From Octopus sinensis (Eukaryota): a DNA stretch of 64,000 bases. The notes under the pieces are model-generated. The model searched no databases, was not told the DNA's origin, and saw nothing but the letters and a program-made list of their open reading frames with translations. The stretch is from positions 61,070,001 through 61,134,000 of the forward strand of contig NC_043006.1 of NCBI RefSeq assembly GCF_006345805.1, read 5' to 3'. Both the position numbers and the translations under genes were made by a program. Position 1 is the stretch's first letter; every line of letters starts with the position of its first letter. Positions 4,088-42,985 of this stretch are shown here, in pieces.

Positions 4088-5290
4088 TAACTCCCCACAT
4101 ACATCCAATACTCTACCCAAAAAATACAGAGGTTTATAATATTATCCACCAGAACATCTCATTATTAAGACAAGACCCTAGAATGAAACAAGCATTTGAA
4201 ATATACAAAATAATCGAAATAAAAGACAATCAAAGTCTCTTAAGTTTTCCTCACAAATATTAAATTACCTTCCACAATTCCCACACCAACAGACAAAAAT
4301 TGTGGCCGCCCTAATTGTGAGGTTTGCGTCAACCTTAATGATGATACAATGTACAAATTCAAATCAGGACAGAGTTTCACCGTAAAAAATCACTTGACAT
4401 GTTCGATGAGGAATTTAATATACACTATCAAATGTCAAGGATGTAATGAGGGTTACATAGGTCAAACAAAGCCTTTTCTAAGAAATAGACTGACCAATTA
4501 GCGACAATAAATACGAGACCCCTATACTAGATTGATTCCACTCAGTGAACACAGACATATGTGCCAAACATAAGTGCCTCAAGTTCCAGGTTTTCCCACT
4601 CTACCTCTGCTCGGTGAAAACCACAGATGAAGCACGGATAATATAAGAAAATACTTTCATAAAAAAGTACAAACTTTAATAGAGTGCATACACAAATAAC
4701 TATTCGCACACAAAAACCATTCTGTCTTAACATGAAGAACTTATACAGCTAACAACCTAAACTTTAGCCACAAAACTATATGTAAACGACTCCTGTCTAT
4801 TCTCCCACCAAACATGAAATTTGGAGTACCTTGATTGTAACTAAACATGTTCACTCAACTGTATCGTACTTCATTTTAGGCGCAAAGTATAGTCATGTCA
4901 CACTAACGCATGGATGTTGCAGGAAACGCTCAGAAGGTTCTAATCACGTGTTCATTCTCTACAAACACTTTACAGAAAACTTTCACAGCATTGATTGTTT
5001 GGTACTGCCACCAGAAATGTTCAGTCAACTGTGTCAGCCTTGACTTACGACGCTAAACATTGATACTAACACACGGACGTAGCGGGGAACCTACAAACAT
5101 TTCTAAGACCAGTCATGTGACTATCATCTACCAATGAAATCTTATTCAAAACATATACTAATTTAAGCCATATAATACCTACAGATATAGAGCAAGCGTC
5201 AAGCACTAATCAAAAGCCAGAAAATCAGGGCAAATTGTTAAACCGGTTAAATCTTTAAATATAATAATAAAAAGTTTTAAATATTCTCAG
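4088..5290 (+). mobile_element. Penelope-like retroelement relic (Cys-rich linker + GIY-YIG), Neptune-like
   Basis: Translation KNCGRPNCEVCVNL...YKFKSGQSFTVKNHLTCSMRNLIYTIKCQGCNEGYIGQTKPFLRNRLTN*RQ*IRDPYTRLIPLSEH (about 4295-4550), with stops and frameshifts. The sequence after ~4680 is probably the 3' non-coding part and its boundary is uncertain. Confidence 0.85.
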
Positions 5291-5418
5291 TGCATTTTTA
5301 ACTTGTTTTCCTTATATTTCTACCATGTGGAATAAAATAACTTTGTTTTCTATCTCTCTCTCCTTCTCTCTCTCCTTCTCCCTCTCTCTCTCTCTCTCTC
5401 TCTCTCCATATATATATA

Positions 5419-6021
5419 ATGGAAGAATTTGTGACGCGTATCCTGGATGATGGTGATGCTGTTGACATCATTCTATTGGACTTTGCCAAAGTTTTTGACT
5501 TGATTAACCACCGCCTATTACTTGTTAAGCTTCTAGCATATCGTTTCCATCCGGATATTGTACGATGGGTTGGTGCCTACTTCTCAGATCGCTCCTTCCA
5601 AGTCCAAGTTAATGGTTCGCTGTCCGACGTCTCCAGTACGAGCAGTGGCGTGCCTCAAGGTTCAGTGCTTTGGCCGTTATTGTTTTTAGTCTTCATCGAT
5701 GACTTGCCCGACGACCTTACGCAACACACCCTTCTATTTGCCGACGATGTCAAACTGGTCGCTCCTCGCGGTGATATAGATGATCTTCGTCGATGCCTCC
5801 ACCAAGTTTGGAGATGGTCAAACGAATGGAACCTGTGTCTGAACGTGTCAAAGTGTTGTCATCTGCCTGTTGGCTCCTCTCCTGCAACTCAACTTGATAT
5901 CGAGCCGAGTCGTCTGCTGCTGGAGAAGACCGACAAAGTAAAGGACCTGGGCATCTTGGTGGATTATTCCTTTTCGCCGTCGGCCCAATGCGTCCATGCT
6001 GCCAAAAAAGCACGCGGGTAG
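5419..6021 (+). mobile_element. Non-LTR retrotransposon reverse transcriptase fragment (CR1-clade-like)
   Basis: 200-aa ORF with DIILLDFAKVFD, SGVPQGSVLWPLLFLVFIDDL, LLFADDVKL, LNVSKC and VKDLGILVD. It is truncated at both ends, by a microsatellite upstream and a SINE downstream. Confidence 0.93.
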
Positions 6022-6034
6022 TAAAGAAATAGGT

Positions 6035-6175
6035 ACTTCGTCTGTGTTTACGTTCAAATTCCGCTGAAGTAGAGTTTGCTTCTCATTCTTTCAGGGTTGA
6101 TAAATTAAGTACCAGTCTAATCGACTGGCCCCTCCCCCCAAATTTCGGGCTTTGTACCAAGAGTAGAAGAGAAAA
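6035..6175 (+). mobile_element. SINE fragment (Meta-domain-like)
   Basis: gttcaaattccgctgaagtagagtttgcttctcattctttcagggttgataaattaagtaccag is homologous to the minus-strand copy at 27600-27812. Confidence 0.7.
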
Positions 6176-6384
6176 GAATATTTGTTTAATCTTGCATATA
6201 TGTGTGAATGAATGATACAGAAAAGAAATTTAGCAATTTTGTTTTTATAGTTTTATAAACTATACATATAGCACTAAATATAAACTAAAACGAAAAGAAA
6301 AAAAAAATATATATCAATTCAAGCCAGTACAAATACAAAGAAAATTGACTCATCAAAACATCTGAAATAAGTACAGAAAAAAAA

Positions 6385-12907: not shown

Positions 12908-13413
12908 CTAGCAGTATCGCCCGGCGTTGCTCGGGTTTGTAAGGGAAATAACTATATAAGCATTTTTAGAGAGTTACTTCCCTTATAAATTCGGGCTTTC
13001 TTAGCCATTTTTGTTTTGTTGTCTTCAAGCCATGAAGACGTTGTTCTAAAAGAACGCTGGTTTCCTTCGCAACGCATTACGACGTTGATTTCTTTACACT
13101 CCCTTCCCCACAGCTTCACGAGGGAGGGAAGGGGGAGAAGCAAACAGGTACAGCTGTGAGCGTGAACGCCAACTCCGCTGCCATCGACACACGATGCATT
13201 TTATGCATTAAAATGGAATAAAAAATGATGTTAAATTATTTTAAAAATCGTAGACTCATCGTTGACGCGCGCTAATAGTCAGACGGGCTCGATATGAATC
13301 ACGACTATAAGATACCCGAATTTGGTTAAACTGCACCGCAAAATGTGGGAGGAGTTAGGAATCTAAATCGAAGGGGACAGACATTCACACAACAAGAGTT
13401 TTATATATATAGA
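12908..13413 (-). mobile_element. Non-autonomous Helitron (~506 bp)
   Basis: On the minus strand it begins 5'-TC (13413) and ends with a GC hairpin CCCGagcaacgcCGGG shortly before a terminal CTAG (12908). It sits between A and T with no TSD. Confidence 0.85.
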
Positions 13414-13416
13414 TAT

Positions 13417-13625
13417 AGTTAATCCAAACATGAAAGCAAAAAAAACACAACAACGCGAGGACGTGGAACAAATATAGTATTATTGGACGCTCAGGAAAGA
13501 AAGAAAGAATGAGGGTATAACGTTTCGAGCGGAGCTCTTCGTCGGAAACATAGGAAAAGGAAAGATCCAGAGAAGGGAAGACAGAGGAAAAAAAATCGCC
13601 AACGGTACACGTGCGGTCACATTTT
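13417..13625 (-). mobile_element. ~200-bp non-coding element with minimal hammerhead motif (subfamily A, copy 1)
   Basis: Near-identical to 23232-23438 and flanked by TA runs. Minus strand 13550-13515 reads gtttCCGACGA-A-GAGCtccGCTC-GAAACGTTatac. Confidence 0.8.
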
Positions 13626-13634
13626 GAATGTGTA

Positions 13635-14439: not shown

Positions 14440-16095
14440 AAGTATAATGTTGACAGCAATAATATCGCAGAGAATGGGAAAATATCTGGAAGAAAAACTT
14501 TTCCCAGAAGAGTAGAAGGGATGCTACAAGGGATTATACGGATGTGAAGATCAGCTTGTGATCAATAAAGCCATAACGAAACGCAGCTACACAAAGAAGG
14601 ATTTAAGTATGGCCTGGATCGATTACCGAAAGGCCTTTGATAGTATTTTCCACACAGGGATCCTAGAAACACTAGCTATGAACAAGGTAGCACAAATGAA
14701 CATACAATATATAAAACATTCCATGAAAAATGGCAGACAGTACTACAGCTCCAGAAAAAAGAAGGACTCATAAAGACCAAAGCCATCCACATTGGAAGAG
14801 AAATATTCCTGAGAGATACTCTCTCCTCACTCCAATTCAGCTTGGAACTGGCACTTGTATCTGACATGTCAAACAGATCTGGATGTGGAAAGAATTGTTA
14901 CGGCAAAGCAATCGGTCATCTCTTGTATGTGGATGATCTAAAACCGTATGCTACACATGATAAACATCTGGAAAAATTACTACAGACAATACATAGATTT
15001 ACCAAAGAAATATGCCTGAATCTTGGCTTAGAAAAATGTGCTAAAGCTACCTTGAAAAGAGGAAAACTAGCTAAGAGTAGCAATATCAGATTAGATATAG
15101 CAAATGAAATAACAGAATTAGACCAAAGCCAGACATATAAATACTGAGGAATCGATGAACTAGATACAATACAACACGCACAAATGTAAAAGAAGATAAA
15201 ACAGAATACTGAAGACGAGCTAGATTAATACTGAAAACAGAGTGCAATGCTAAAAGCAAGATAACGGGTATCAACCCTATAGCTGTCCCAGTTATAATTT
15301 ACAGTTACAATATTCTTAACTGAACTCTAAATGGATTAATAAAAATAGACAAAAAAAGAAAACAAATAATGACAGGAAATAATGAAATCCAAGCTAAAAC
15401 TGGAACAGCAACGGAGTATGACGAAACGATGGAAAGAAAGGCTCCTTCATGGAAAATATTAGGTTAAGCTGAACAGAAATTAAATAGACAAAGCAAAATT
15501 CCAACTATGGCTGAGAAGCTAGGCTCAAGAGACTGAAGGATTTTTAATTGCAGCTCAAGGTCAAAACCTTCCTACCAGAAGTCACCTAAAACATGCAAGA
15601 AGCAGAAATAAAACAGGTTACTGCAGGATATGTGATGATGGAGAAGAAACAATAAATCATAGTGTCTCAGTACGCCCAGTACTGGCTAAGAAGTAATATA
15701 TTCACAGACACGACAGAATTGGGTCCTATATACACTGGAAGCTAGGCTAGCACTAAGGAATAACAACAACAAAAAAAAGATGGTATTGGTAGACGCCATA
15801 AAAGGTCACAGAAAATGTGAAAGCAACAATACTCTAAAATATGCCAATACACACAGAGAAATTAAGGTCGATAGGCCAGATATAGTTGACAAAGATCACC
15901 AAGGAAAAAATGCTTTCTAATCGATTATTCAATACAAACAGATGACAATGTTTCTCTAAAAGATACGGTAAAACTTTTAAAATACAAAGATCTGGAAATA
16001 GTGGTGACTCGAATGTGGAACCTAAAAACAGAAACAATTCCTATGATAGTAAGCACATTAGAGATGATAAAAAATCATTCGGACAAATATAAATC
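14440..16095 (+). mobile_element. R4/Dong-clade non-LTR retrotransposon relic (RT + Zn knuckle + RLE endonuclease)
   Basis: DLSMAWIDYRKAFDSI, HLLYVDDLK and YKY, then ETEGFLIAAQ, CRICDDGEETINH, RHD, RPDIV and KYKDLEI, with many stops and frameshifts. Confidence 0.88.
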
Positions 16096-22600: not shown

Positions 22601-23231
22601 ATATTTCATAAATATACGCCTTAATTATTTACTCTTTATTTCACAGATTTGATAATGAGTGGTAAATAATATTGCAATTAAAATCAATTTATGCAGCCCT
22701 TCGAGAAATGGACTGAATGAAAGGGCAGCGACGAAAGGAATTAATGATATGCAAGGCGCCCAGGTAATATCAACGAGTGTATAGGACAAAACTGATTTAG
22801 GTGTTATAAAAGGAAGGTAACATCAGATACGATGAAAAACCATTTTTTAACTATTAGTTAAGTTTATATAGGATTATATCCTATAAATGCTTATAACACA
22901 CTTTACGTGTGTATGTGTGTGTGTGCGTGTGTGTGTGTGTGTCTGTGTGTACGGAGACACAGAAAGAGTGATTGACAGGCAATTATGCAGATAAATAGAT
23001 CAGACATCTCATATATATTATCTGTATTAAATACATCAAAAACAAAATAGGTAGATGTATATACATAGAAAAAGAGACAAATTGTCAGGGAGAAACGTTC
23101 AGGCGATGAATTTTCACGTATAAACATATAGATATTTATATTAATAGGTCCAGTTTACACAGAGTACAAATGACAGAGAAAATTTAAGGGGTGGAAGAAT
23201 GATATATATATATATATATATACATATATAT

Positions 23232-23438
23232 GGTTAATCCAAACAAGAAAGCACAAAAAACACAACAACGCGAGGACGTGGAACAAATATAGTATTATTG
23301 GACGCTCAGGAAAGAAGGAGAGAAGGAGGGTTTAACGTTTCGAACGGAGCTCTTCATCGGAAACATAGGAGAAGGAAAGATCCAGAGAAGGGAAGACAGA
23401 GGAAAAAAAATCGCCAACGGTACACGCGCGGTCACATT
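23232..23438 (-). mobile_element. ~200-bp non-coding element with minimal hammerhead motif (subfamily A, copy 2)
   Basis: Minus strand 23364-23330 reads gtttCCGATGA-A-GAGCtccGTTC-GAAACGTTaaac, with stem I gttt/aaac. Both flanks are (TA)n. Confidence 0.8.
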
Positions 23439-23459
23439 TATATATGTATATATATATAT

Positions 23460-23625: not shown

Positions 23626-24414
23626 ATAGTCTTGACTCTGTTCGTTATTTACACTGCGTTCCCTTTTGTTTGTTTGTGCGCATGTGTGTGGGTTAGTGTG
23701 TGTGTGTGTGTGACTATACACGCATGCATGTATGTATGTATGTATGTATGTGTATATTTGCATGTGTATGTATGTATATATGTGTGCGTATGCATATGTA
23801 TATATGTATGTATGTGTGTGCATCTGTATGTATGTATCCTGCGTATTTATGTGCTTGCATGTCTGTGTTTGTGTATTTGCTGTGTATGTGTGTGAACATG
23901 TGTTTGTATATGTTTGCACCTCTGTCTCCTTGTGTGTGCATGTATGTGTGTGTGTGTGTGTGTTATGCAACTATGTACCATGCATGTATGTATGGATGTG
24001 TATCTTTATATGTGTGGATCCGTGTCTCCATATGTGTCTTTGTGTGAAGTAAAGTGTGTGTATATATGGTCATGTGTTTCAGTCTCCATTTGCGTATATG
24101 TGCTTGTCTGTTCATATAACCTATGTACCTATCTGTATGTATGTTGATCTGTTTATTTTCATATCTACATGCTTACATACAAAATAATGCATACACACAC
24201 ACTGTCATCCACACACACACACGCACACATACATTCATATATTTTTTATACAACTGAGATGTTCACTGCGTACGTACCTACCTAGGATATTTTAGTGGAC
24301 CAAGTTTCACGTTTCTATAATGTGAAATATTCAAAACATCAAACAAATTTGTCCCGCAATAAAGCGTGATACACAGTTCATACATACATACACATGTACT
24401 TACATATATATATG

Positions 24415-24607
24415 TATAGATCGTTAGCCACTACACACATTTTTTCTCTCATTGTTTCCCTCCTTGTTTTCTATGTCCCTTTCTGCAGAAGAGCGTAGGC
24501 TCGAAACGTAAAAGACTTTTCTATTCCTGAGCGTTATACTAATACATTTGTTTGTTTTGTACACCACATGTCTCCGTCTTTTGTTGTTGTTTTTTCGGAA
24601 ACTCTCC

Positions 24608-24610
<3 letters not shown>
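24415..24610 (+). mobile_element. ~200-bp non-coding element with minimal hammerhead motif (subfamily B, copy 1)
   Basis: 24475-24516 reads gtccctttCTGCAGA-A-GAGCgtagGCTC-GAAACGTAaaagac. Homologous to 31712-31898 and TA-flanked. Confidence 0.8.
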
Positions 24611-24640
<30 letters not shown>

Positions 24641-24644
<4 letters not shown>

Positions 24645-26550
24645 GAGAGAGGTGTGAGAGTGTGTGTTCTCAAAAGAAACCGGAATATTGCAATATTATT
24701 TTATTCCCTTAATTTTACACGTTTACAATTTTATTGCATTCAAAGTATTCTCCATTTGAAGCTCTGCATCTGTCCAGACGCATTTTCCATTGTTCGAAGT
24801 AGTCCTGGATCTCTGGCGAAATAATGCCTTTTAACACCTCCATCGTTTTTTTTCTTCACATTGTCCACATCTGCTAAGCGTTTTCCATTAAGGACTTTTT
24901 TTATCCGGTGTAGTGAAAAAGTCATGATTACATGATTGTTATTTGATATATTCTTAAATAATTATTAATTGTTTATGATATATGCTTCGTAATGTATTGT
25001 TACATTCCACTTTAATTATTTAATCTTTCCACTCTTCCGGTGTGTCACCGTGGCTCGATTTACCGGTCTTTTGTTATAAACGCTGTGCATGACATTGGAA
25101 TTCAGAGTTTGAATGTTTAGATAGTGGGCGACACATTATTCTTGCTGGTCGGGTCACATGTAAGCCGCATGGTATGCTTTTCGCGTTAATTTGTATCTAC
25201 AAGAATATTCTCCTGAAGAGAAAAAAATAAAACCTTTTGGTTCCTAACTTCGAAACAGCAATACAGATTCAACCTTTTAATTTTAAGTTTTGAAATTTAG
25301 GTAATCACTCCCACCGACAACCTTATTGTGAAGAGATAGAATATGACTGATCATAGTGGGTTTATAGTGGTTTTGACTGCTATTTCTAGGCACGTAAGGG
25401 TTTTTGCAACCCACTCCGTTATAATTGTGGTTTCTTCATAATTATACACACCTCTTTCATGAAATTTATGATTACATGTTTGGCTATTCATTTATCCGTC
25501 AATAATTATGATTTGTTAATATATACTCTTCGTAATGTATTTTTACAGACCTCGTTATATATATAATATATATATATATATATATCAAACATACATACAT
25601 ACATATATAGATATATATATATATTATATATATACAGAGAGAGAGGTGTGAGAGTGTGTGTTCTCAAAAGAAACCGGAATATTGCAATATTATTTTATTC
25701 CCTTAATTTTACACGTTTACAATTTTATTGCATTCAAAGTATTCTTCATTTGAAGCTCTGCATCTGTCCAGACGCATTTTCCACTGTTCGAAGTAGTCCT
25801 GGATCTCTGGCGAAATAATGCCTTTTAACACCTCCATCGTTTTTTTTCTTCACATTGTCCACATCTGCTAAGCGTTTTCCATTTAGGACTTTTTTTTATC
25901 CGGGGGAGTGAAAAAGTCATGATTACATGATTGTTATTTGATATATTCTTAAATAATTATTAATTGTTTATGATATATGCTTCGTAATGTATTGTTACAT
26001 TCCACTTTAATTATTTAATCTTTCCACTCTTCCGGTGTGTCACCGTGGCTCGATTTACCGGTCTTTTGTTATAAACGCTGTGCATGACATTGGAATTCAG
26101 AGTTTGAATGTTTAGATAGTGGGCGACACATTATTCTTGCTGGTCGGGTCACATGTAAGCCCCATGGTATGCTTTTCGCGTTAATTTGTATCTACAAGAA
26201 TATTCTCCTGAAGAGAAAAAAATAAAACCTTTTGGTTCCTAACTTCGAAACAGCAATACAGATTTAACCTTTTAATTTTAAGTTTTGAAATTTAGGTAAT
26301 CACTCCCACCGACAACCTTATTGTGAAGAGATAGAATATGACTGATCATAGTGGGTTTATAGTGGTTTTGACTGCTATTTCTAGGCACGTAAGGGTTTTT
26401 GCAACCCTCTCCGTTATAATTGTGGTTTCTTCATAATTATACACACCTCTTTCATGAAATTTATGATTACATGTTTGGCTATTCATTTATCCGTCAATAA
26501 TTATGATTTGTTAATATATACTCTTCGTAATGTATTTTTACAGTCCTCGT

Positions 26551-26553
<3 letters not shown>
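24641..26553. repeat. ~1-kb tandem duplication (units 24641-25559 and 25635-26553)
   Basis: Both units start cagagagagaggtgtgagagtg and end ..cctcgttata and differ at only about ten positions. TA microsatellites separate and flank them. Confidence 0.95.
24660..24925 (-). mobile_element. mariner transposase C-terminal fragment with TIR (second copy 25654-25921)
   Basis: Minus translation KKVLNGKRLADVDNVKKK/TMEVLKGIISPEIQDYFEQWKMRLDRCRASNGEYFE. The TIR-like ctcaaaagaaaccggaat matches the ends of the element at 42139. Confidence 0.85.
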
Positions 26554-26581
<28 letters not shown>

Positions 26582-26609
26582 AACATACATACATATATAT
26601 ATTATATAT

Positions 26610-26640
<31 letters not shown>

Positions 26641-26647
26641 CACACAC

Positions 26648-26742
<95 letters not shown>

Positions 26743-27599
26743 TGTGTGTGATATAAATATATATTCATCCTGAAAGTACGACTATATCTCTCGTTCTCTC
26801 TTACACTTTCTCCCCATCATTCCGCACGATTTTACGCCGTAATGTATGAAACATACGATGACTTCATTTAATAAAAGTATGTCAGTTGTGTGACAGGCTT
26901 CTGTACAATAAGTGCAAAAAAGAAAACTATCTACCACATACGTATATGACTGACAAAATAACCCCAAGTTCATGACGCAGCATTCCAATGACTGAAACAA
27001 GTAAAAGGTTAAAAAATTATTTTTTAAGCTACATAGTGTTGATCTCACACAATATGCTCTTCTCTAAACATTTCTACTACGAAACATTATAAAATGCGCA
27101 AGATTTCAAATAAGATATTTTCTTTCTCCTGAAGCTTCTATGTTTTTTCAAGAGAAAACTATTTAAAATCTTTAAAAAGTTGAATATATTCGAATTTTAC
27201 ATGTACAAAAATCTGCCTTGGAATAAACTCTGAAACGATTATCTATATGTCTTGAATTTATATCTAGACTAACGACTTATACATGTAACTGCATAGAGTT
27301 AATATGCCCGTGCTACGTAAATAAGATCACAGCATTCCTTACAAATAATAGACAGTAAACACACCCAATGAATTATAAAATGAAGAAATAAAGAGAGAGA
27401 ACATGAAGTGCGAAAAGCCTAGTTATTTTGACTCTTTAATGTATTTTCATACATAATTGGCATAAAATATCCCATATATACACACATACATGCATACATG
27501 GAATGAACAGGCCTTAATCACACTCTCAGAATTGTTTCTGTGTACTGGTAACAGTTGTTAATTGCTGAGTTTTCCATATGATAGTATTATATAAATATT

Positions 27600-27812
27600 G
27601 ATTTCAAATGTTGGCTCCATGCCATGAATTTGGGTGGTAGGGTAAAGTCGATAATATCGAACTCAGAAATCAACTGGTACTTTTTTATCGACCCTGAAAG
27701 GATGAAAAACAAAGTCGATTTCGGCAGACTCTTAACTCAGCTCGTAGAGACGGATGAAATGCCGAAAAAACTTTACTCGCAGTACTAACGATTCTACAAG
27801 CTCACTGTCTTA
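27600..27812 (-). mobile_element. tRNA-derived SINE (Meta-domain-like)
   Basis: Minus strand gagttaagagtctgccgaaatcgactttgtttttcatcctttcagggtcgataaaaaagtaccag, the same family as 6035. Confidence 0.7.
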
Positions 27813-28465
27813 CTTATATATAAATATTGTAAAAACTAATATGGCCCTGCAGTAGCTGTGTACCCGCTCATCGTCAGATCAGTGGCTTTGAGAACACTAA
27901 TGGAACACGTCCAGTTTCCCATTGTTTTATACCTGTATTTTATTTTTAGCATTCCCCTGATAAAGAGTATCACATAGACTCAAATAGACGTAAGTCATAA
28001 AAACACCAAACAATTTACCAAAATATAAATAGACCAAACTTAGTCGTTGGAAATAAAAATTACAAGCATGAGTATAGATTATTCAAACCTAAAATTCAGT
28101 CTTATTGTAGCGTAAATGTCTCATTTTTATGAAGATAGATTAACACTAGGATGTTAAGATATAGAATAGAAGTATTCGTTACGTCATATGTCTCTAAATG
28201 TTTTTCGTTAAAGGACCTGTTATCATCTTATCATCCCAGCAGGATACCAACTTCTATGTGAGTCCGCTTGTAAATCTTAATTCCAGATGTCCTATTCACA
28301 TCAAAACTGCTTACAAATTCATAAATAGAATCTATCGCACGGGAAGAGGTTTATTGGTCTACACCCGCATAACATGCATATGCACATCAACTTGGTATGT
28401 ACACAGATATAAATATATCCAAACACGCACACACATGAGGCGGTACGTGAAATAGTATATTACGC

Positions 28466-28530
28466 GGTGGTGCCCCAGCATGGCCGCGGCCTTCGGGTTA
28501 AAACATTTTTAAGGATTTAAGGATTTTAAG
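28466..28530 (+). mobile_element. Isolated LINE/SINE 3' tail
   Basis: ggtgccccagcatggccgcggccttcgggttaaaac followed by (tttaagga)n. The motif is shared with 3172 and 59855. Confidence 0.65.
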
Positions 28531-30046
28531 GAAGCCTTGGCCAACGAAAATGCTGCCTGTCTGAATTGCTTTCACTCTCGTCAACCACACGACACCTTTC
28601 GCTATGGCCACCAAGCAGAGAAAAGTTGCCTGCCTTTTCCGGTCAAGGGAAGGAGATGGGACAATCTTGATGAGGGACTCAGTTCACAACCGTGTCCCTG
28701 CCACACGCGACAGTAGATGTTCTATGTAAACCCGTAGACCCGAAATCAACGGACACTGTACAATAGCATGCAGAACAGATTCGTTGATTTGTTCGCATAT
28801 CGGACCTGTCGGTGTATCTTCACATCTGTTCCTGAAGAGTTTATCGCAAACAGGCAGAGCTTCTCGACAGCACTGTTTGGCTAGGGGTCTCTGGTAGCTA
28901 TCTATGGGTGTTGACCCAAAATTCCTCTGAAGCAGTCTGGTGAGTTGACCGTCATCGAAACCCAGGGTCTTCCCCAGGACATCGTCGCACTTGCCAGCCA
29001 CTATAAAAGAACGAGATGGAACCGCGCCGTTCGCATTGCCCGTTCGCCAGAGAAGCGAGAGAGCAAGACAGCACTCAGCTGGCAAAGCGCCCAACCAGGG
29101 TCTACGCGTGATCCACGAGTTCAGTTAATTAAATAAGTTGAACTATGGGAAGACGAGTTTCACGAAGGGCGGCCTCCACATTTTAAAGCTTGATTTGTCT
29201 TAGCCTTAGCGCATGTCTGCGTATTTTCAGCCAAGGCATGCACAGCTGTCCATTTAGAAGTAGATGACAGTAAATAAAGCGTCTTGCTCACAAAAATCTG
29301 AAGAGTAGACGCTCCAGCTTGACCAGACACGAATCTGGGCAAAGCACCACGGTTAGAAGGTAGGTGATGCTTGATGCGTTAAGCACATTTGCTACCTCCG
29401 CCCTACCATTTAGAGACAGCTTCCTCTTGCCCTATTTCTGGGTGAGATTAGCCCCCCTGCTCGTAATTTCATCCCAGTTCCTCTCTATTTGGAGGTCCGT
29501 ACCGAACCAGACTTCGAGCAATTTCAGCGAGCAATCTGTCCAACGACCTACAATACAGGTAGGTGGTCTTGGACCAGCCTCTCCAGGTGCTGAGCTGCAG
29601 CCCGACCGCCTTATCACAGTGTATTTTTGCCCCTGGTACCCCTTCGTACTCCCAAATAGTATAACCTACTAGATGCAGGTGTCTGTCACAGGATACGATG
29701 AAGGTGGTGTCGACCGCATAAATGTTACAGTCATTCCGCACCATAGATCATGCGGGACGCCTCTTAGGACTCCAGTTTCTAGAGTAATGGCTCGATGGTC
29801 AAAGCGTACAGAAGGGATGATAGGTGATATCCTTGGTTGAACGAACGCACGATGCTGAACGGCTCCGAAAATGGCCGTTAATCCGAACTACCGCGTATAA
29901 GGCGGTGATCCCACCGCAGTAGGCCAGGCCAAGCCCAACCGCTTCAAGAACTGCTGCCAGATAGCGATGGTCAACGCTATCGAATGCTTTAGACTGATCT
30001 AAATGCATCAGTTCCTCACCCATGCCAGGATTATTAACCAGCTTGT
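28531..30046 (-). mobile_element. L1/Tx1-clade non-LTR retrotransposon relic (RT to C-terminal Cys/His region)
   Basis: LDQSKAFDSVDHRYLAAVLEAVGLG..VRINGH, LLEVWFGTDLQIERNWDEI and CEQINESVLHAIVQCP in a GC-richer block with frameshifts. Confidence 0.85.
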
Positions 30047-31648
30047 CTAAAACGATAAAGATAAAAGATAAACATAATATTTCAACTGTGTATTTTTTTT
30101 CTTTTGAGGCTTCGCAACAGATCTGTGATTCATGTACACTGTCTCTTGAATGTGTTGGGAAATGAAAGCCTGGAGACTGTATGAAATTATCAGTATAAAA
30201 TTATGGGACGGTATTAAATTATCTGTATGCATATATATGTGTGTGTGTGTGTGCGTGTGTGTGTGTTTGTGTGTGTATTTTTTCTGATGCATCAAGAAGA
30301 CACTTCAATAATCCTTTCGAAATACCGTCATACAGTCATGTTATATTACTGGATATTTCATTTTATTTTTTGCGCATATTTTTATTTGTATTTCATTGTG
30401 TCAATCCATATGTGGAATTTGTTAGTTGGATATGTGGAACATCTTTTAAACAGAGATATATGTGGATTAACTTACAGTTTGTTTGTATATCTAAACTATT
30501 TCTTATAAAGTATAAATGTTACGATGCATAAAATTAAGTATTATACGAAAATAGTACGAAACTTTTTCATGCATATTCATATGTTGAATGTGGAAATGAA
30601 AATAGTTCCTTCCTTCGGACATAAAATATACCTCTATATATATGTGTGAGCTAAAATATGATCAGATTCATATAAACAGTTCTCTGTTGTATAAATCTGC
30701 ACTATTTAAAGTAGAGATAGAGAAACTTATTATCATGAAGATTGATTAAAAACTATAACAATTCCCAACGATAAAACTTTAACAATGTTTTGATTTATCT
30801 TGACGTGGACTGAGTTTTTTGTTTGTTTATTACGATTACTTTTTGTTATAATTTAGTTGTATTGTACTTTTTATAACTAAAACGAAGAAATAAAAGTAGA
30901 TAGTCTAGACCTGGTAGTTTTGTGTCTTTATTGATTTGAATATTTCATTTTGTTTAAAACTTTTAATCATAAATAAAGTTTGGTCAATACTTTGAATTTG
31001 TTGAAAAACTTCTTATGCGAATGATGTTTATCAAGTAGATGATAACTTTGAGTTCATTCTCTACTAGACATTTCAATTTCGAACTTGGAATTTTTAAAAT
31101 TACAAGTCACATTTTTAGAAATACCAAAAAAAAAAAAAAACAACCTCTATTATCAACATTTTAGTGTTTTCTTGTTCTGATTCTTGTATTGTCTTGTGTT
31201 TTTCCTGTCTCTGGCTCATCATTCGTTGTTGATGGAAGAGGCAGATTCGATAGGATGGTGTGACTGCGCTATTGTACTGCTTGTTGTTTTTGATATGATT
31301 ATTTATATTATTGCTGCAGCTGAGTTTGTCATAACATCATTAACATAACAATCCAATGCGGAAGCGTTATTGTGATTGCCATCAGTATCATTGTTATTAA
31401 AAAATATCATAATCCATACACTTGACACCACAGTTCCCATTGTTATCATCGCTAACACTATTATTCTCAACATTATTGTATCTACCACATGGAGTCTCAC
31501 AGAAAGACGAGAGGAAGAAGCCACTCGCCAGGATACATAAATATTCATTCATATGTTGGTATTATGTACTTGAATTTAGTACTTGTTTGCTATCGATTTT
31601 CCTATTTTAGCAATATCATCTCATGCATATACATATACACACACGCAC

Positions 31649-31705
<57 letters not shown>

Positions 31706-31711
31706 TCGCCA

Positions 31712-31898
31712 TAATAGATCGCTAGCCACTACACGTTCTTAATTTTTTCTCCTTGTTTCTTTCTGTGTCTTTCTGTGGAAGAGCGAAGGCTCGAAACGTT
31801 AAAGACTTTTTCACTTCCCGAGCGTTATACTAATACATTTGTTTGTTGTCTACAATATATGTCTTCATCTTTAATTTTTTTGTGAATTCTCCCCCCCC
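31712..31898 (+). mobile_element. ~200-bp non-coding element with minimal hammerhead motif (subfamily B, copy 2)
   Basis: 31767-31806 reads GTCTTT-CTGTGGA-A-GAGCgaagGCTC-GAAAC-GTT-AAAGAC, with a perfect 6-bp stem I. Confidence 0.8.
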
Positions 31899-33694
31899 CA
31901 TATATATATATATATTATATATATATATAACTCACCACCTACATCTTAGCTAAATATATATTATATATTTGGCTATTTCTCTACAAATTTGGATGATCAT
32001 CACAAGTACCAGTTTGCTTGGAAAAGGAATATATTTATCAGAAGCCTGCTTTTTCCCCTTTACAAAGGAAGCCGTGTATCTTTATGTTATTTTGAATATA
32101 ATAATTCATGAAGAACCGACGAAGTGTTCATTATGATAGATTAAGATTTTGTGACTGTTGCCTTTTGCACATTGATCAAACATATTTTAGCGGAGAACTG
32201 TCCCTCAAACCATACGCTAATGTCATAAATATAAAACATTATAGATATTTTCCTAGATTACCTGCATGTAGGAAAAAGATGAGATGGCCACGGATGAATT
32301 GTTTTCTTTTTTAAATATGTTGTGGCGATCACGATTCACATGAATTTAATTAACAGCAACAAAGCAACTAAGATCTCAGCCAACGAGACACCACACACGT
32401 GGTTATTGAACCTGTTAGAAATGGTAACCACCTTGCTCTCAAATCACAGCCTATTGTTTAAAATGATAAGGAAGATATATGGGGATAGGTAATCTGAGAG
32501 GGACACTGAAAAAAGAAACGAAACATTAGCTACAATAATTCTGATTAGAGATCTCTTCAGTCAGATGTAATTAGTAGTTAAACATCAGCGTCATAACAAT
32601 TAAGATTTTAGGATTTTCTGTACTCAGGCAGACAAAAACAAAATCATCTCATCTTTAACTGTTATTTTAGCATTTATAAATTATTACACGTTCAGCATCT
32701 TCACTGTTTCGCAGATTAGATGAGCAGATTTTGATAAAACACAAAAATTTGTTTATTTCTTCATATAAATTTATATAGTTTAGAGAATAATATCAACCAA
32801 TCGTTGTTTAGTAATGTTACAGATTTCCAGCAGAATAGTCGCCAGTTCCAACTTTACTAGCTTCTAACAAATTTCAACTGAAAATTCCAGTGCTATAGTC
32901 TTTCGGGCATTACTTAGATACACAGCAAAATATTCTGATATCTATGTTATTTCACAAAGTCTCCTTAAAGCGGACATTCACAAAATTCTCTCAGTAACTC
33001 GTATGTTCTTCTATGATGTATATCATGACTTTTCGATATACGAGATTCGATTTATAGAAAAGTGATATATGCACGAAAAGAAGAAACATGTAGAATGCAA
33101 ATTAAAAACATATCGGATGCAGATTACATCGATAATCAACTGGACGAGAGTTCCTCCTGGTGTTAAGAACGACAGTAACGTCGGTTCCTAGAGAGAAGCC
33201 ATGTTAAAGTGACGATATACATTACTTTTCAGTATAGTCACTAATTTCATCACTTATAGAGATTTCCTAAATTGCTACTATTTTTTGCTGCAACACCAGT
33301 GACTGGTTGCCACTTATTTTTCTATATATTGCGAGCGGGAGAGAACTAGTACTATCTCTGTCGGATGGGTGTCCACCACTGAGGATGAACACAAATACCA
33401 TGAAATCGCCGGCCGGGTGATACCAATATTAATGCAGTATTTCATAATTAATTTATGCAAATGACTTGTGTCTAATTTACAATTAATGCAGAGAAGAGGT
33501 GGGTAGGAGTGAAAAGAGGAAGCATGTCTCAGATGAAGAGAGGTAGTAGGTGTCGTGTTATAACAAAGTAATAATTGAAATGTTGTGTAGTGCATTTGGT
33601 GTCTATTTCTAGCGTACAGGCGTTGTCACTTCAGAAGCCTTTAATATTATTATATTTTTATAATTGTAATTACATATAATAATAATAATAATAA

Positions 33695-39499: not shown

Positions 39500-40790
39500 C
39501 ATGCTGATATATATCTAAATGATAAACTTCTGGAAAATTTACAGATTTTTACTGTTCAAGTGATTATTTGGATATATAGTCTTCGAATTAGCTTTCTTCT
39601 TTATGGTTTTGAGAAACCTAATTTCTCAAGATCGGTATTTAGGCAGTGTGTTACATATACCAGGGACCTCATAATTATAGGTATAATCCTGAATTTGTAA
39701 TCTGGATAGAGTGGCTGCAGATTTCTCAATAGTTCTGCGTATGTGTTCTTTTTATTTCAGTGATTCTCAGCTTTATGTTACCATCCGTTGGGCAACTAAT
39801 TTCCACAGTTGGGCAACTAATGTACACAAGTTCTCTTCTCGATCCCAAATCATTATATCAAGTCTATTGTATTTACATTTTATTGAGGTCATCACTGGAA
39901 CATTCCACCAGTACTCCTTTTTATTATGAGTGATTATGGCTTCTACCATACTGTGGGTTCTTATGTCTTTCTCGTCGGGGTTATCCTTCCAACGAATTTC
40001 CTTATAGAGTGTCCTAATTACAACATCATGTCTCATCGGTAGATAACACCGTGATGATATTTTCGGACAACTGCTTATGATGTGGGTGCTAACGCTACAA
40101 AGTATGCATCTGTTGTCACATTTTACTGCTTTCCCGCATCGCTATCCCTTTTGTGCATCAGGTATTTGGTTGATATTTCCTGTTCCTGGAATGCAAACGC
40201 ATAACCTTCAAAGTGGGAGGTAGTATCCCTTCTATTGGTCCATGATAAACTGTTTTGATGATCAATACTACTAAATTCATGGAGCTTTCTTGTAACATAT
40301 CAATACATAGTCTTCTGCTCACTTATGCTTATCCTTTCATCTGATGATACCTCGCGGTAGGGTCGTGCGACTTCTTTCAGCAAGTAAGGTTGTCAGACAA
40401 GGAATGCTGCTCAAGGAGGTGCCTTCCAAGTCTTATGATGTTATCAGCGTCATGTATGCAAATTTGGTCAAGGAATGCACTTCGACAATTGGTGATGAAA
40501 ATATGTTACTAAAAGGATATGATACGCCGTTCAAAGACAGTTTGGATCGACGTTAAGCCTCTGCTGCTTTGTTTTCGTTTTAGGTAGAGACTTTCTATGT
40601 CACTGTTTATGCGAAAATCACGTGTGCGTGTTAATATTTTGTTGGTTTTCACGTCAATGGCTCGAATCTCATCAAGGGTCCGATGAAGCAACCCAAATTT
40701 TGGTATGAGTACACGCAGTTCAAACACTTTACTTCTCACTTTAGTAGAGCGCACAATGCAGTCTGCATTAATTCGTACAATACTACGCTA
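39500..40790 (-). mobile_element. Second RLE-type (R4/Dong-like) non-LTR relic
   Basis: Minus translations VLIPKFGLLHRTLDEIRAIDVKTNKIL..SDIESLYLKRKQSSRGL, FEGYAFAFQEQEISTKYL, CILC and MRHDVV..EYWWNVPVMTSIKCKYNRLDIMIWD. Confidence 0.85.
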
Positions 40791-41200: not shown

Positions 41201-42138
41201 GTAAAAAGTGAAAAAACTACACAAGGCTTGTTTTAAAAGGTTAAAAAATATATATCTGAGTCAATATGTCTGAAGAATATTATAAATTTTTTTCTTACAA
41301 TGACATAATTTAGAAGAAATGACCGGTTTCGCGTTTAGCTTATACATATATATATATATATATATCAGATGCCGCACGGAATTTTGTCAGTGAACAGGTC
41401 GCGGTCTCAAAGTGACGAATGTTGAAGTGAATCTAACGAATCTTGTGTGTTTCTTACATGGGTTATAAACATCTTCCACGCTGCAACTGTTTTCGTCTCA
41501 GCACACGATCTCAGATCAGATTACTTGATATGCATGTACATCTCCGTAATATATATATATATGAGCTGGTTTACTTTCATGCATAGCTCTATAAATTCAT
41601 AATTGCTTTAATGTATGCGCATAGAGCTTAACCTATCTGTTAGCAGGAGCTCCAGGACACACCAGTCATATCAATATATATATATATATGCATGTATGTG
41701 TGTGTGTTTAACGTAAGACATGCTCAGATTGCCTGGGAAACGCATACAGTAAAGTTTAATCTTAATCATTCCCTGCATCCTTTGATTTACAGTTGCATAA
41801 TTCGCTATCGTCGTTGCAAAATGTTGAGTCATATAGTGGCTGTTATCTTATCAAAGTTTTCAATCTAATTCCGTATGCGATACCGCGTAAAACCTATGTT
41901 GATTAACAAATGTTGTTGATCGAATATTAGCCGTATTATGTCATCTGTACAGGATGTGTGCATGCTTGATGATTAATAACTTCCTACAACATGTGCTTTT
42001 CGGGTCATATTTCTCTATCACTATATGTATACATGCATACATGCATAGATATATGTATGTATATAATGTGCATATGTGCATATGTGTGTATGTATATATA
42101 TAGATATACACATATAAATATGTATATGTATAGTTATA

Positions 42139-42985
42139 CGAGGGAGTACTCAAAAGTAACTGGAAATGTTCTATGTGGGAGAAGCCCATTGTTGCTCAGA
42201 TTTCCGCCGCTAGAAGCCACTTGATATTTGGCTGACGTCGTACTACACGTGTGCGTCTTTGTTTTGCAGTGCTGCTTCCGTGTTCGTCGATTTTCGCGAT
42301 GACGTGCTTCCTTCATTCCCTGCTGGGGAAAACGGCAGCCAAAACAGTTGTCATGCCTCAAACAGCTTACGACGATGCCGTTATGAGCAAAACACAAGTT
42401 TATGAGTGGTTTTCATGCTTTAGAAATGGTTACGTTTTGCTTGAGGACACACCTCGTCCCAAAGGAACGAAAACATCATAAACATTCATGAAATGATCTT
42501 TTGATATTACTGGTGTGTCCTGGAGCTCCTGCTAACAGATAGGTTAAGCTCTATGCACATACATTAAAGCAATTATGAATTTATAGAGCTATGCATGAAA
42601 GTAAACCAGCTCAGAATATTCATTATTTCAATGCTTTTGGGCGAGGAATTGCAAATAAAAAGAGAAGCAGCAAAATTTGTGCCTCGCTTGCTCACGGAAG
42701 ATCAAAAGCGATTACGACTGAATGCGTGTCGTGAACTGAAAGAACATTGAATTTGACCGTTTTTCGAAGGTCATCACTGGTGACGAAAGTTGGTGTTACG
42801 GAATTTGCAGATGTGGGAGGGGTGACGAAAAGAATCGACAGAGGCGTTAAAAGGCATCACTTCGCAAGAGTTCAAACACTGCTTCGAACGCATCTGGGCA
42901 AATGCATTGCTTCAAATACAGAATAATTTGTAGGCAAGAAAAGTGTAATGTTGCAAAATTCTAGTTTCTTTTAGATACCCCCTCA
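42139..42985 (+). mobile_element. Internally deleted mariner element with both TIRs and TA TSD
   Basis: TA-cgagggagtactcaaaagtaactggaa ... ttctagtttcttttagataccccctca-TA. Translation LLGKTAAKTVVM.QTAY..AVMSKTQVYEWF..FRNG, AAKFVPRLLTEDQK and VITGDESWCYG. Confidence 0.92.

Follow-up and report, generated by a model that had tools for sequence, protein, structure and literature searches.

Minimal type I hammerhead ribozymes have been described in the pseudo-long terminal repeats (pLTRs) of metazoan Penelope-like elements (PLEs), where, in the sections of PMC4209133 available to us, they combine a U-rich 5' flank, a short stem I, an extra nucleotide after A9, a G10.1-C11.1 pair, a loopless palindromic C15.2-G16.2 stem and an NUH triplet that is frequently GUU, mostly in solo truncated copies. 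The same features recur in a family of short units of Octopus sinensis, two copies of which (copies A and B) lie in the window analysed here, i.e. the whole stretch of 64,000 nt at positions 61,070,001 to 61,134,000 of contig NC_043006.1 (assembly GCF_006345805.1), within a genome of 2.72 Gb. In the part of the published alignment examined, the representatives all carry A6, with a U3-A8 swap as the main core variant, whereas the octopus core reads CUGUNGA. Endonuclease-bearing (EN+) PLEs of the Neptune/Nematis type, as far as described in the portion of PMC8557442 consulted, resemble the octopus element in the order of their domains (reverse transcriptase, RT, then a C-terminal GIY-YIG), in a C-x4-C-x2-C linker, in a CxxC inside GIY-YIG with downstream histidines, and in their partial tandems, inverted copies and (TA)n bias; the octopus hammerhead differs in being non-canonical, and the likeness is drawn from domain features.

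Three further systems are close. The Poseidon element PAc of Anolis (PMC11167929) shares a fixed internal 3' end ~100 nt below the hammerhead, AT-rich targets and an uncut template, but its open reading frame (ORF) starts at stem II and its core is canonical, whereas here the ATG of the ORF lies 726 nt below the cut and position 6 is U. Natural hammerheads with a single change in the CUGA turn, namely A6C in phage Bcep176 and U4C in a viroid, retain low residual activity according to PMC3088659 and PMC7151607; these are single full-size ribozymes, whereas A6U is fixed here in ~15,800 minimal dimer-type copies, and U4C in thousands of copies of a sister family. Non-LTR retrozymes (bioRxiv 10.64898/2026.07.22.740005, seen in part) are likewise short and non-coding and carry a type I hammerhead akin to that of PLE pLTRs, but form tandem arrays, whereas the octopus units are dispersed singles continuous with an autonomous PLE. 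Minimal hammerheads on solo pLTR fragments have been reported before, in the same parts of two of these sources (PMC4209133; bioRxiv 10.64898/2026.07.22.740005). A natural A6U hammerhead was not found in the literature searched, though a survey of small PLE hammerhead variants outside that set may list one, and the word "ribozyme" is absent from the portion of the octopus repeat paper that was seen (PMC13282606). Our verdict is a known class of element with a U6 core variant that we did not find in print.

Two window copies and a family core with U at position 6

Copies A and B both lie on the forward strand, 7.3 kb apart, are 80.4% identical over 168 nt and have (TA)n 3' of each, and the type I minimal hammerhead layout that the original prediction assigned to them is upheld. 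Copy A (about 24413..24609) is a unit-length 3' tip of a PLE pLTR that clusters with the A7 subfamily (88-92% identity to its best A7 relatives) and is followed by a (TA)15 target microsatellite at 24611..24640. Its hammerhead (24479..24514, predicted cut after 24510) consists of a 4-bp stem I (CUUU/AAAG; 24479-82/24511-14), the core CUGCAGA (24483-89, with C6 at 24486), an extra A at 24490, stem II (24491-94/24499-502) and GAAA-CG-U-A (24503-10). Copy B (about 31703..31899), a unit-length tip of the G7 subfamily that is 91% identical to the end of an RT/EN-bearing locus (L061), is flanked by (AT)n target microsatellites at 31649..31702 and 31900..31929; its hammerhead (31767..31806, predicted cut after 31800) has a 6-bp stem I (31767-72/31801-06), the core CUGUGGA (31773-79, with U6 at 31776), an extra A at 31780, stem II (31781-84/31789-92) and GAAA-CG-U-U (31793-800). 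Copy B begins about 9 nt before the 31712 first given, at an initiator-like site (GCAT-CGCCAT) that is the modal 5' end discussed below. The predicted core CUG(C/U)NGA, extra A, stem II GAGC/GCUC and GAAAC-GU(A/U) are present in both copies; the predicted stem I gtcttt/aaagac is that of copy B only, as copy A has 4 bp and the family 4-5 bp. The proposal that the hammerhead is of the minimal PLE type is right. Among the traits of that type, the extra nucleotide after A9, G10.1-C11.1, the palindromic 15.2-16.2 and NUH are all found, and the core CUGANGA is not that of the U6 family.

A descriptor scan of the window returned copies A and B as sole matches and missed two minus-strand sister-family copies. 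Rfam gave no match for the window at the gathering score, nor any hammerhead match at E<=10 for five loci including canonical-A6 sisters; as these sisters are equally blank, the Rfam result is uninformative.

We searched the genome with a 28-place core pattern in which positions 6, 7 and the loop were left free. It gave 16,564 exact matches against 0 for the reversed control; the core is not due to chance. Position 6 was U in 15,846 of them (95.7%) and another base in 718, the first 100 of which, counted by hand, comprised 64 C, 29 A and 7 G, with the C6 copies spread over all N7 types. The family core is therefore CUGUNGA, and the C6 of copy A (24486) is decay from U after insertion. The alternation C/U first read at this position is thus a fixed U with scattered C6 decay, and the suggestion that non-A is a natural variant rather than decay is confirmed. 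The GUAG/GAAG loop change first noted, with stem II kept, does not speak for selection on that stem, GAAG being a minority change (the variable loop II letter is T in 140/144 copies and A in 4/144).

Random decay of a canonical hammerhead after insertion applies only to the C6 of copy A, in line with the excess of C, spread over all N7 types, among the first 100 non-U copies. As an account of the loss of A6 in the family we give it practically no credence, and for U6 it is already refuted: U is present in almost the whole family and occupies position 6 in the 5' as well as the 3' pLTR of young near-intact elements, and those A6 copies that fall within the U6 clade are dispersed over its tree. 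Among 20 A6 loci retrieved, 6 fell in a sister family and 14 were dispersed within U6 subfamilies, and the inverted pair L070 combines a U6 arm with an A6 arm. Four contig sets, in which RNA ends cannot be read, covered the motif in runs bearing four organism labels and gave no alternative position-6 letter at a 10% share, a weak hint only.

The Penelope-like element behind the units

The units are the 3' tip of the pLTR of an autonomous Neptune/Nematis-type PLE. Longer copies extend upstream through a C-rich 3' untranslated region (UTR), a GIY-YIG domain and an RT, as in L061, where the terminal unit is preceded by all three, and the A7 subfamily of copy A also has a long member (L168). The clearest case, L113, is organized as pLTR(1091-1868)-leader-ORF-3'UTR-pLTR(5595-6377), with repeats 96% alike and the same U6 motif in both. 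Twenty near-intact loci of nine kb were fetched (15 of the U6 family, 5 of the U4C sister family); 6 of the 15 U6-family loci displayed both hammerheads, and the upstream and downstream motifs are 4.3-4.5 kb apart. Accordingly, the original picture of a solo non-coding module is mostly wrong, since the units run on into an autonomous PLE. The idea that the unit might be the terminal repeat of an intact PLE holds in that the U6 motif stands in both repeats, and falls short in that the elements are only near-intact.

A protein search yielded 6,081 candidates, and many open frames of 600-1,009 codons were seen among the 150 scored. In L113 and L114, RVT_1 and GIY-YIG occupy a single open frame (1009 and 963 codons) with no in-register start, which makes these elements near-intact rather than intact. 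Pfam recognized RVT_1 (E=1.3e-7), then GIY-YIG (E=3.6e-4, just under the curated cut-off). With the RT at residues 448-637 and GIY-YIG at 868-907, the endonuclease is C-terminal, and the N-terminal arrangement of Naiad/Chlamys is not that of this protein. The linker (PCSRPRCRTC, C-x4-C-x2-C), the CxxC within GIY-YIG (IYCISCSLC...YIG) and the motifs FAEH and RHF..GH agree with the Neptune/Nematis linker (C-x2-5-C-x2-C) and CCHH motif, as given in the part of the source seen. There were 857 protein homologues, 43-63% identical among the 120 listed. Partial-tandem pLTRs, variable 5' ends and inverted copies, which mark EN+ PLEs, are likewise found.

Several side observations concern the element itself. 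Inverted pLTR pairs, head-to-head or tail-to-tail, occur in L065, L070 and L131. Head-to-tail compound insertions, with one copy at the 3' end of another, are seen in L168 (749-1494, the two copies being from different subfamilies) and in L226, which suggests that element ends are themselves targets. An ATG lies a few nucleotides below the modal 5' end in all families (about 1650-1670 in L113 and homologous sites); it opens a four-codon frame in the U6 and young U4C families and reads ATG-TGA in the others.

Elsewhere in the window, a 1.03-kb tandem duplication (24611-25634 and 25604-26629, 98% identical) begins in the (TA)n directly after copy A and is either recent or an assembly artefact. 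A decayed GIY-YIG that has a C..CxxC linker and derives from another PLE family, rich in AT, lies at about 4250-4700 on the forward strand (tblastn 32%, E=2e-8). A 118-nt inverted pair (41562-41679 and 42496-42613; 97% complementary, 816 nt apart) has (TA)n beside one arm, and frames resembling non-LTR retrotransposon RT/endonuclease were noted by eye at 5341-6021, 14644-15147, 28684-30200 and 39773-40141.

Ends of the copies and the proposed templates

Copy ends were scored in the first 70 of 4,664 young T7 copies, chosen by their 3' end alone, which, because of how the anchor was built, sits 106 nt below the cut; copies selected by their core have the same fixed 3' end. The 3' end was followed by (TA)n in 61/70 copies, in keeping with the (TA)n bias first proposed; three copies ran on into the leader, and the remaining 6 were followed by something else, for the most part microsatellites of other kinds. 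At the 5' side, with four copies carrying internal duplications set aside, 21/42 terminal copies reaching -100 stopped at -116..-100, 8 of them at -109 (T7a alone: 8/26 at this mode). By eye, the G7/A7 and A6/U4C samples had the same mode, at which, or just inside which, all four units of the window begin. The site (TCAGT, TCAGA, GCATT) resembles the initiator consensus. A PLE start site in the upstream pLTR is given in the part of a review that was seen (PMC6765202). Since unit-length copies span the cut site, their templates were uncut.

A linear template running from the transcription start site (TSS) to the 3' pLTR predicts that full-length copies, too, start at the -109 mode. We scored 55 long loci, of which 20 were unscorable, 17 ended at or below the leader start, one stopped at -45 and 17 passed -100; L115, initially in the leader-start group, proved on rescoring to reach -786. 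Together with two from the first sample, 19 upstream pLTRs of ORF-bearing tandems were available, and none stopped at the mode (range -212 to -1251), against 21/42 terminal copies (P=7e-5; T7a only, P=0.014). The prediction having failed, the proposed template model was changed: 0/19 is what a circular or multimeric template would be expected to give. The junction of pLTR and leader is seamless, and within an element the two pLTRs are separated by a mean of 4.0 substitutions, against 18 between elements (17 elements), a contrast that partly reflects subfamily structure. The simplest template with no 5' end at the mode is a cut-and-ligated circle, which would call for a low-rate U6 ribozyme; on this copy layout we lean slightly towards it.

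The same ends could suggest that the units form a non-autonomous, retrozyme- or short interspersed element (SINE)-like family transcribed from solo copies and mobilized in trans. The sharp unit-length class would fit, as would the fact that ORF-bearing copies never start at the unit 5' end, which suits a separate short RNA, and the T7b subfamily is nearly all short (long members 2/21 versus 20/39 in T7a, P=0.002). We consider this improbable, because T7a, T7b, G7 and A7 each have members that extend on their upstream side into the body of the PLE, T7a units match the pLTR of near-intact elements at 94-99.5% identity, and no head-to-tail unit arrays were seen in the window or the fetched loci displayed, no genome-wide search for arrays having been made. 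Nor is the unit non-autonomous in the retrozyme sense, being continuous with 3'UTR, EN and RT, with T7b as a possible exception. Thus the trans mobilization first envisaged mostly gives way to an autonomous PLE and survives in a weak form: given the defined 5' end of the units and the shortness of T7b, some mobilization in trans, notably of T7b, may add copies.

The reading that we favour, by a modest degree, is that the units are tips of an autonomous PLE with a fixed U6 and that its hammerhead would remain a weak, protein-assisted ribozyme making occasional circular templates. In this scheme (i) the U6 motif stands in both repeats of an element built as pLTR-leader-ORF-3'UTR-pLTR, (ii) transcription would start at the initiator-like site ~111 nt above the cut in the upstream pLTR, (iii) the endonuclease would nick (TA)n and the RT initiate internally ~106 nt below the cut, the fixed 3' end being seen here and the mechanism transferred from the Anolis PLE (PMC11167929), (iv) on uncleaved linear RNA the first RT site would yield a ~215-nt run-off cDNA, matching the window units, and (v) the two hammerheads would pair via their ACGU palindrome and cleave, and ligation of the monomer released between the cuts would close a circle that the RT could go round more than once, yielding ORF-bearing copies that have a variable upstream pLTR and a seamless junction. 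U6 would weaken cleavage without abolishing it, leaving most templates uncut. Steps (i) and (iii) we regard as almost certain and step (ii) as likely; residual ribozyme activity and circles are somewhat better than an even guess. There is precedent for the parts: circles giving more-than-unit copies were proposed in the section of PMC4209133 seen, and PMC11167929 reported that the RT initiates internally, that protein assists cleavage and that the template is mainly uncut RNA. A stronger version, rather doubtful at present though worth stating, is that A6U is a functional attenuated core selected in a successful PLE lineage, with U4C arising independently in its sister; circles from rare cleavage would be the obligate template of full-length tandems and uncut RNA would give tens of thousands of 215-nt units.

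Sister families, constraint and the meaning of the variant core

A pattern for the sister families gave 10,153 genome matches. In the first 100, counted by hand, A6 was present in 99 and U4C (core CCGACGA) in 68, a share in which CUGA may be inflated by CpG decay. The sisters have the same 3' layout as the U6 family, loops of 3-4 nt, and a G-C pair in stem I where U6 has C-G, a swap that separates U6 from the A6/U4C families as a single compensatory event. By their shared layout and the stem I swap, the canonical A6 sisters show the U6 motif to be a genuine homologue of the hammerhead. That A6 is universal in the part of PMC4209133 examined leads us to infer that U6 is the derived state. With U4C, the lineage has undergone another core change, independent of U6; the family that carries it has thousands of copies and near-intact elements (L116, L125, L130), and its youngest branch has GUC and a U.U mismatch in stem I, yet near-intact ORFs. 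The two window copies missed by the descriptor belong here: a unit-length copy at 13402..13628 (minus strand) with A6 but U4C (CCGACGA) and a UCC loop, and a second unit at 23214..23439 (minus strand) with CCGAUGA and one stem II pair changed.

Constraint was assessed on 144 copies clustered by their flank columns alone at five thresholds (2-8 U6 clusters, 10-50 copies unclustered), with non-U6 pattern picks left out and one A6 copy included but unclustered. Majority letters differed between U6 clusters in 0/30 core and stem columns versus 34-45/112 flank columns (P from 2e-4 to 3e-6). All four bases occur at N7; H17 is A or U, never G. The hammerhead leaves these positions free, and they are the only ones to vary between subfamilies in the 36-column block (chance about 0.024, post hoc). 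Stem cells were paired in 97.7% of cases versus 20-48% when the stems were slid, with covariation of one event only.

Predicted folding did not discriminate. The unit regions showed no folding advantage over shuffles (z +0.5 and +0.6), and folding energies do not separate U6 from A6 motifs. Selection of U6 and U4C for stabilizing an inactive 4-7/14-16.2 helix was considered and dropped: U6 motifs do adopt this fold (predicted probability of an open core 0.015-0.28), but canonical A6 sisters are equally closed (0.003-0.08), so that the fold is not diagnostic. A splice-acceptor origin of U6 (pyrimidine tract then UAG) was also rejected, since N7 varies and only the A7 subfamily fits.

A number of observations weigh against a weakly active U6 ribozyme. 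Cleavage is predicted here from sequence and copy layout, and the TSS from copy ends. In the portions of the literature available, natural A6C has kobs<0.1/min (PMC3088659), A6C drops to 3.6e-6/min at 0.3 mM Mg and is strongly reduced in Mg and not in Mn (PMC7151607), and every single mutant of the CUGA turn is low in activity (PMC9901934). Copies starting at the cut site number 0/70 in the T7 sample, and among the first 100 of 173 about 19 start there, only ~2x a control TA site (pure-(TA) junctions 13 in that 100 versus 9/63 at the control, about twofold, by hand counts); 5' ends were ambiguous in 4/70 copies, and 20/55 long loci were unscorable. Multimeric read-through or strand transfer would equally yield more-than-unit copies and matched pLTRs. 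Stem II shows no covariation (4/4 pairs invariant) and loop II is as fixed between U6 subfamilies as the core (0-1 of 4 columns), so that the constraint may bear on sequence, through protein or promoter binding, rather than on catalysis; flank blocks are also conserved, columns are not independent, and copies were partly selected by the motif. Finally, the young U4C sister has a mismatched stem I, yet is equally abundant.

A rival reading is that the units have the same PLE origin but the U6 motif is catalytically dead, the hairpin and its flanks being kept as a protein-binding site or internal promoter, and more-than-unit copies coming from read-through of a tandem master or from LTR-like strand transfer of the 215-nt cDNA to the 3' pLTR. 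The low activity of CUGA-turn mutants (PMC9901934, PMC7151607, as above) speaks for this, as do the fixation of a different damaging change in each of two large lineages (U6, and U4C in 68 of the sampled sister matches), the conservation of stem II and loop II in sequence, the small excess of copies starting at the cut, the independence of target-primed reverse transcription from cleavage in vitro (PMC11167929) and, in the part of PMC8557442 seen, Naiad PLEs that thrive without canonical hammerheads. We judge it possible but unlikely. Against it, variation between subfamilies in the 36-column block is confined to the catalytically free N7 and H17, with H17 never G; no tandem of two full ORFs was present in the 20 nine-kb loci, the neighbouring long ORFs in L119 and L120 being RTs of other long interspersed elements (LINEs); and strand transfer predicts second-pass stops at the 5' end, which were seen in 0/19.

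The role of the PLE hammerhead has been called unclear (PMC8557442, in the part seen), and its cleavage is dispensable in vitro (PMC11167929). In the octopus lineage, canonical A6, fixed A6U and fixed U4C form a natural series that includes young near-intact elements, which allows direct comparison of activity, of dependence on protein and of the formation of circles. Because standard descriptors require CUGA, ~15,800 copies are invisible to them; similar families elsewhere are perhaps invisible too, and PLEs classed as hammerhead-less may deserve re-examination. Should the motif prove dead, it would be an example of a ribozyme fold retained for some non-catalytic purpose. If A6U is instead an attenuated ribozyme, 0/19 versus 21/42 would be genomic evidence for a role of the PLE hammerhead and for the origin of the pseudo-LTR.

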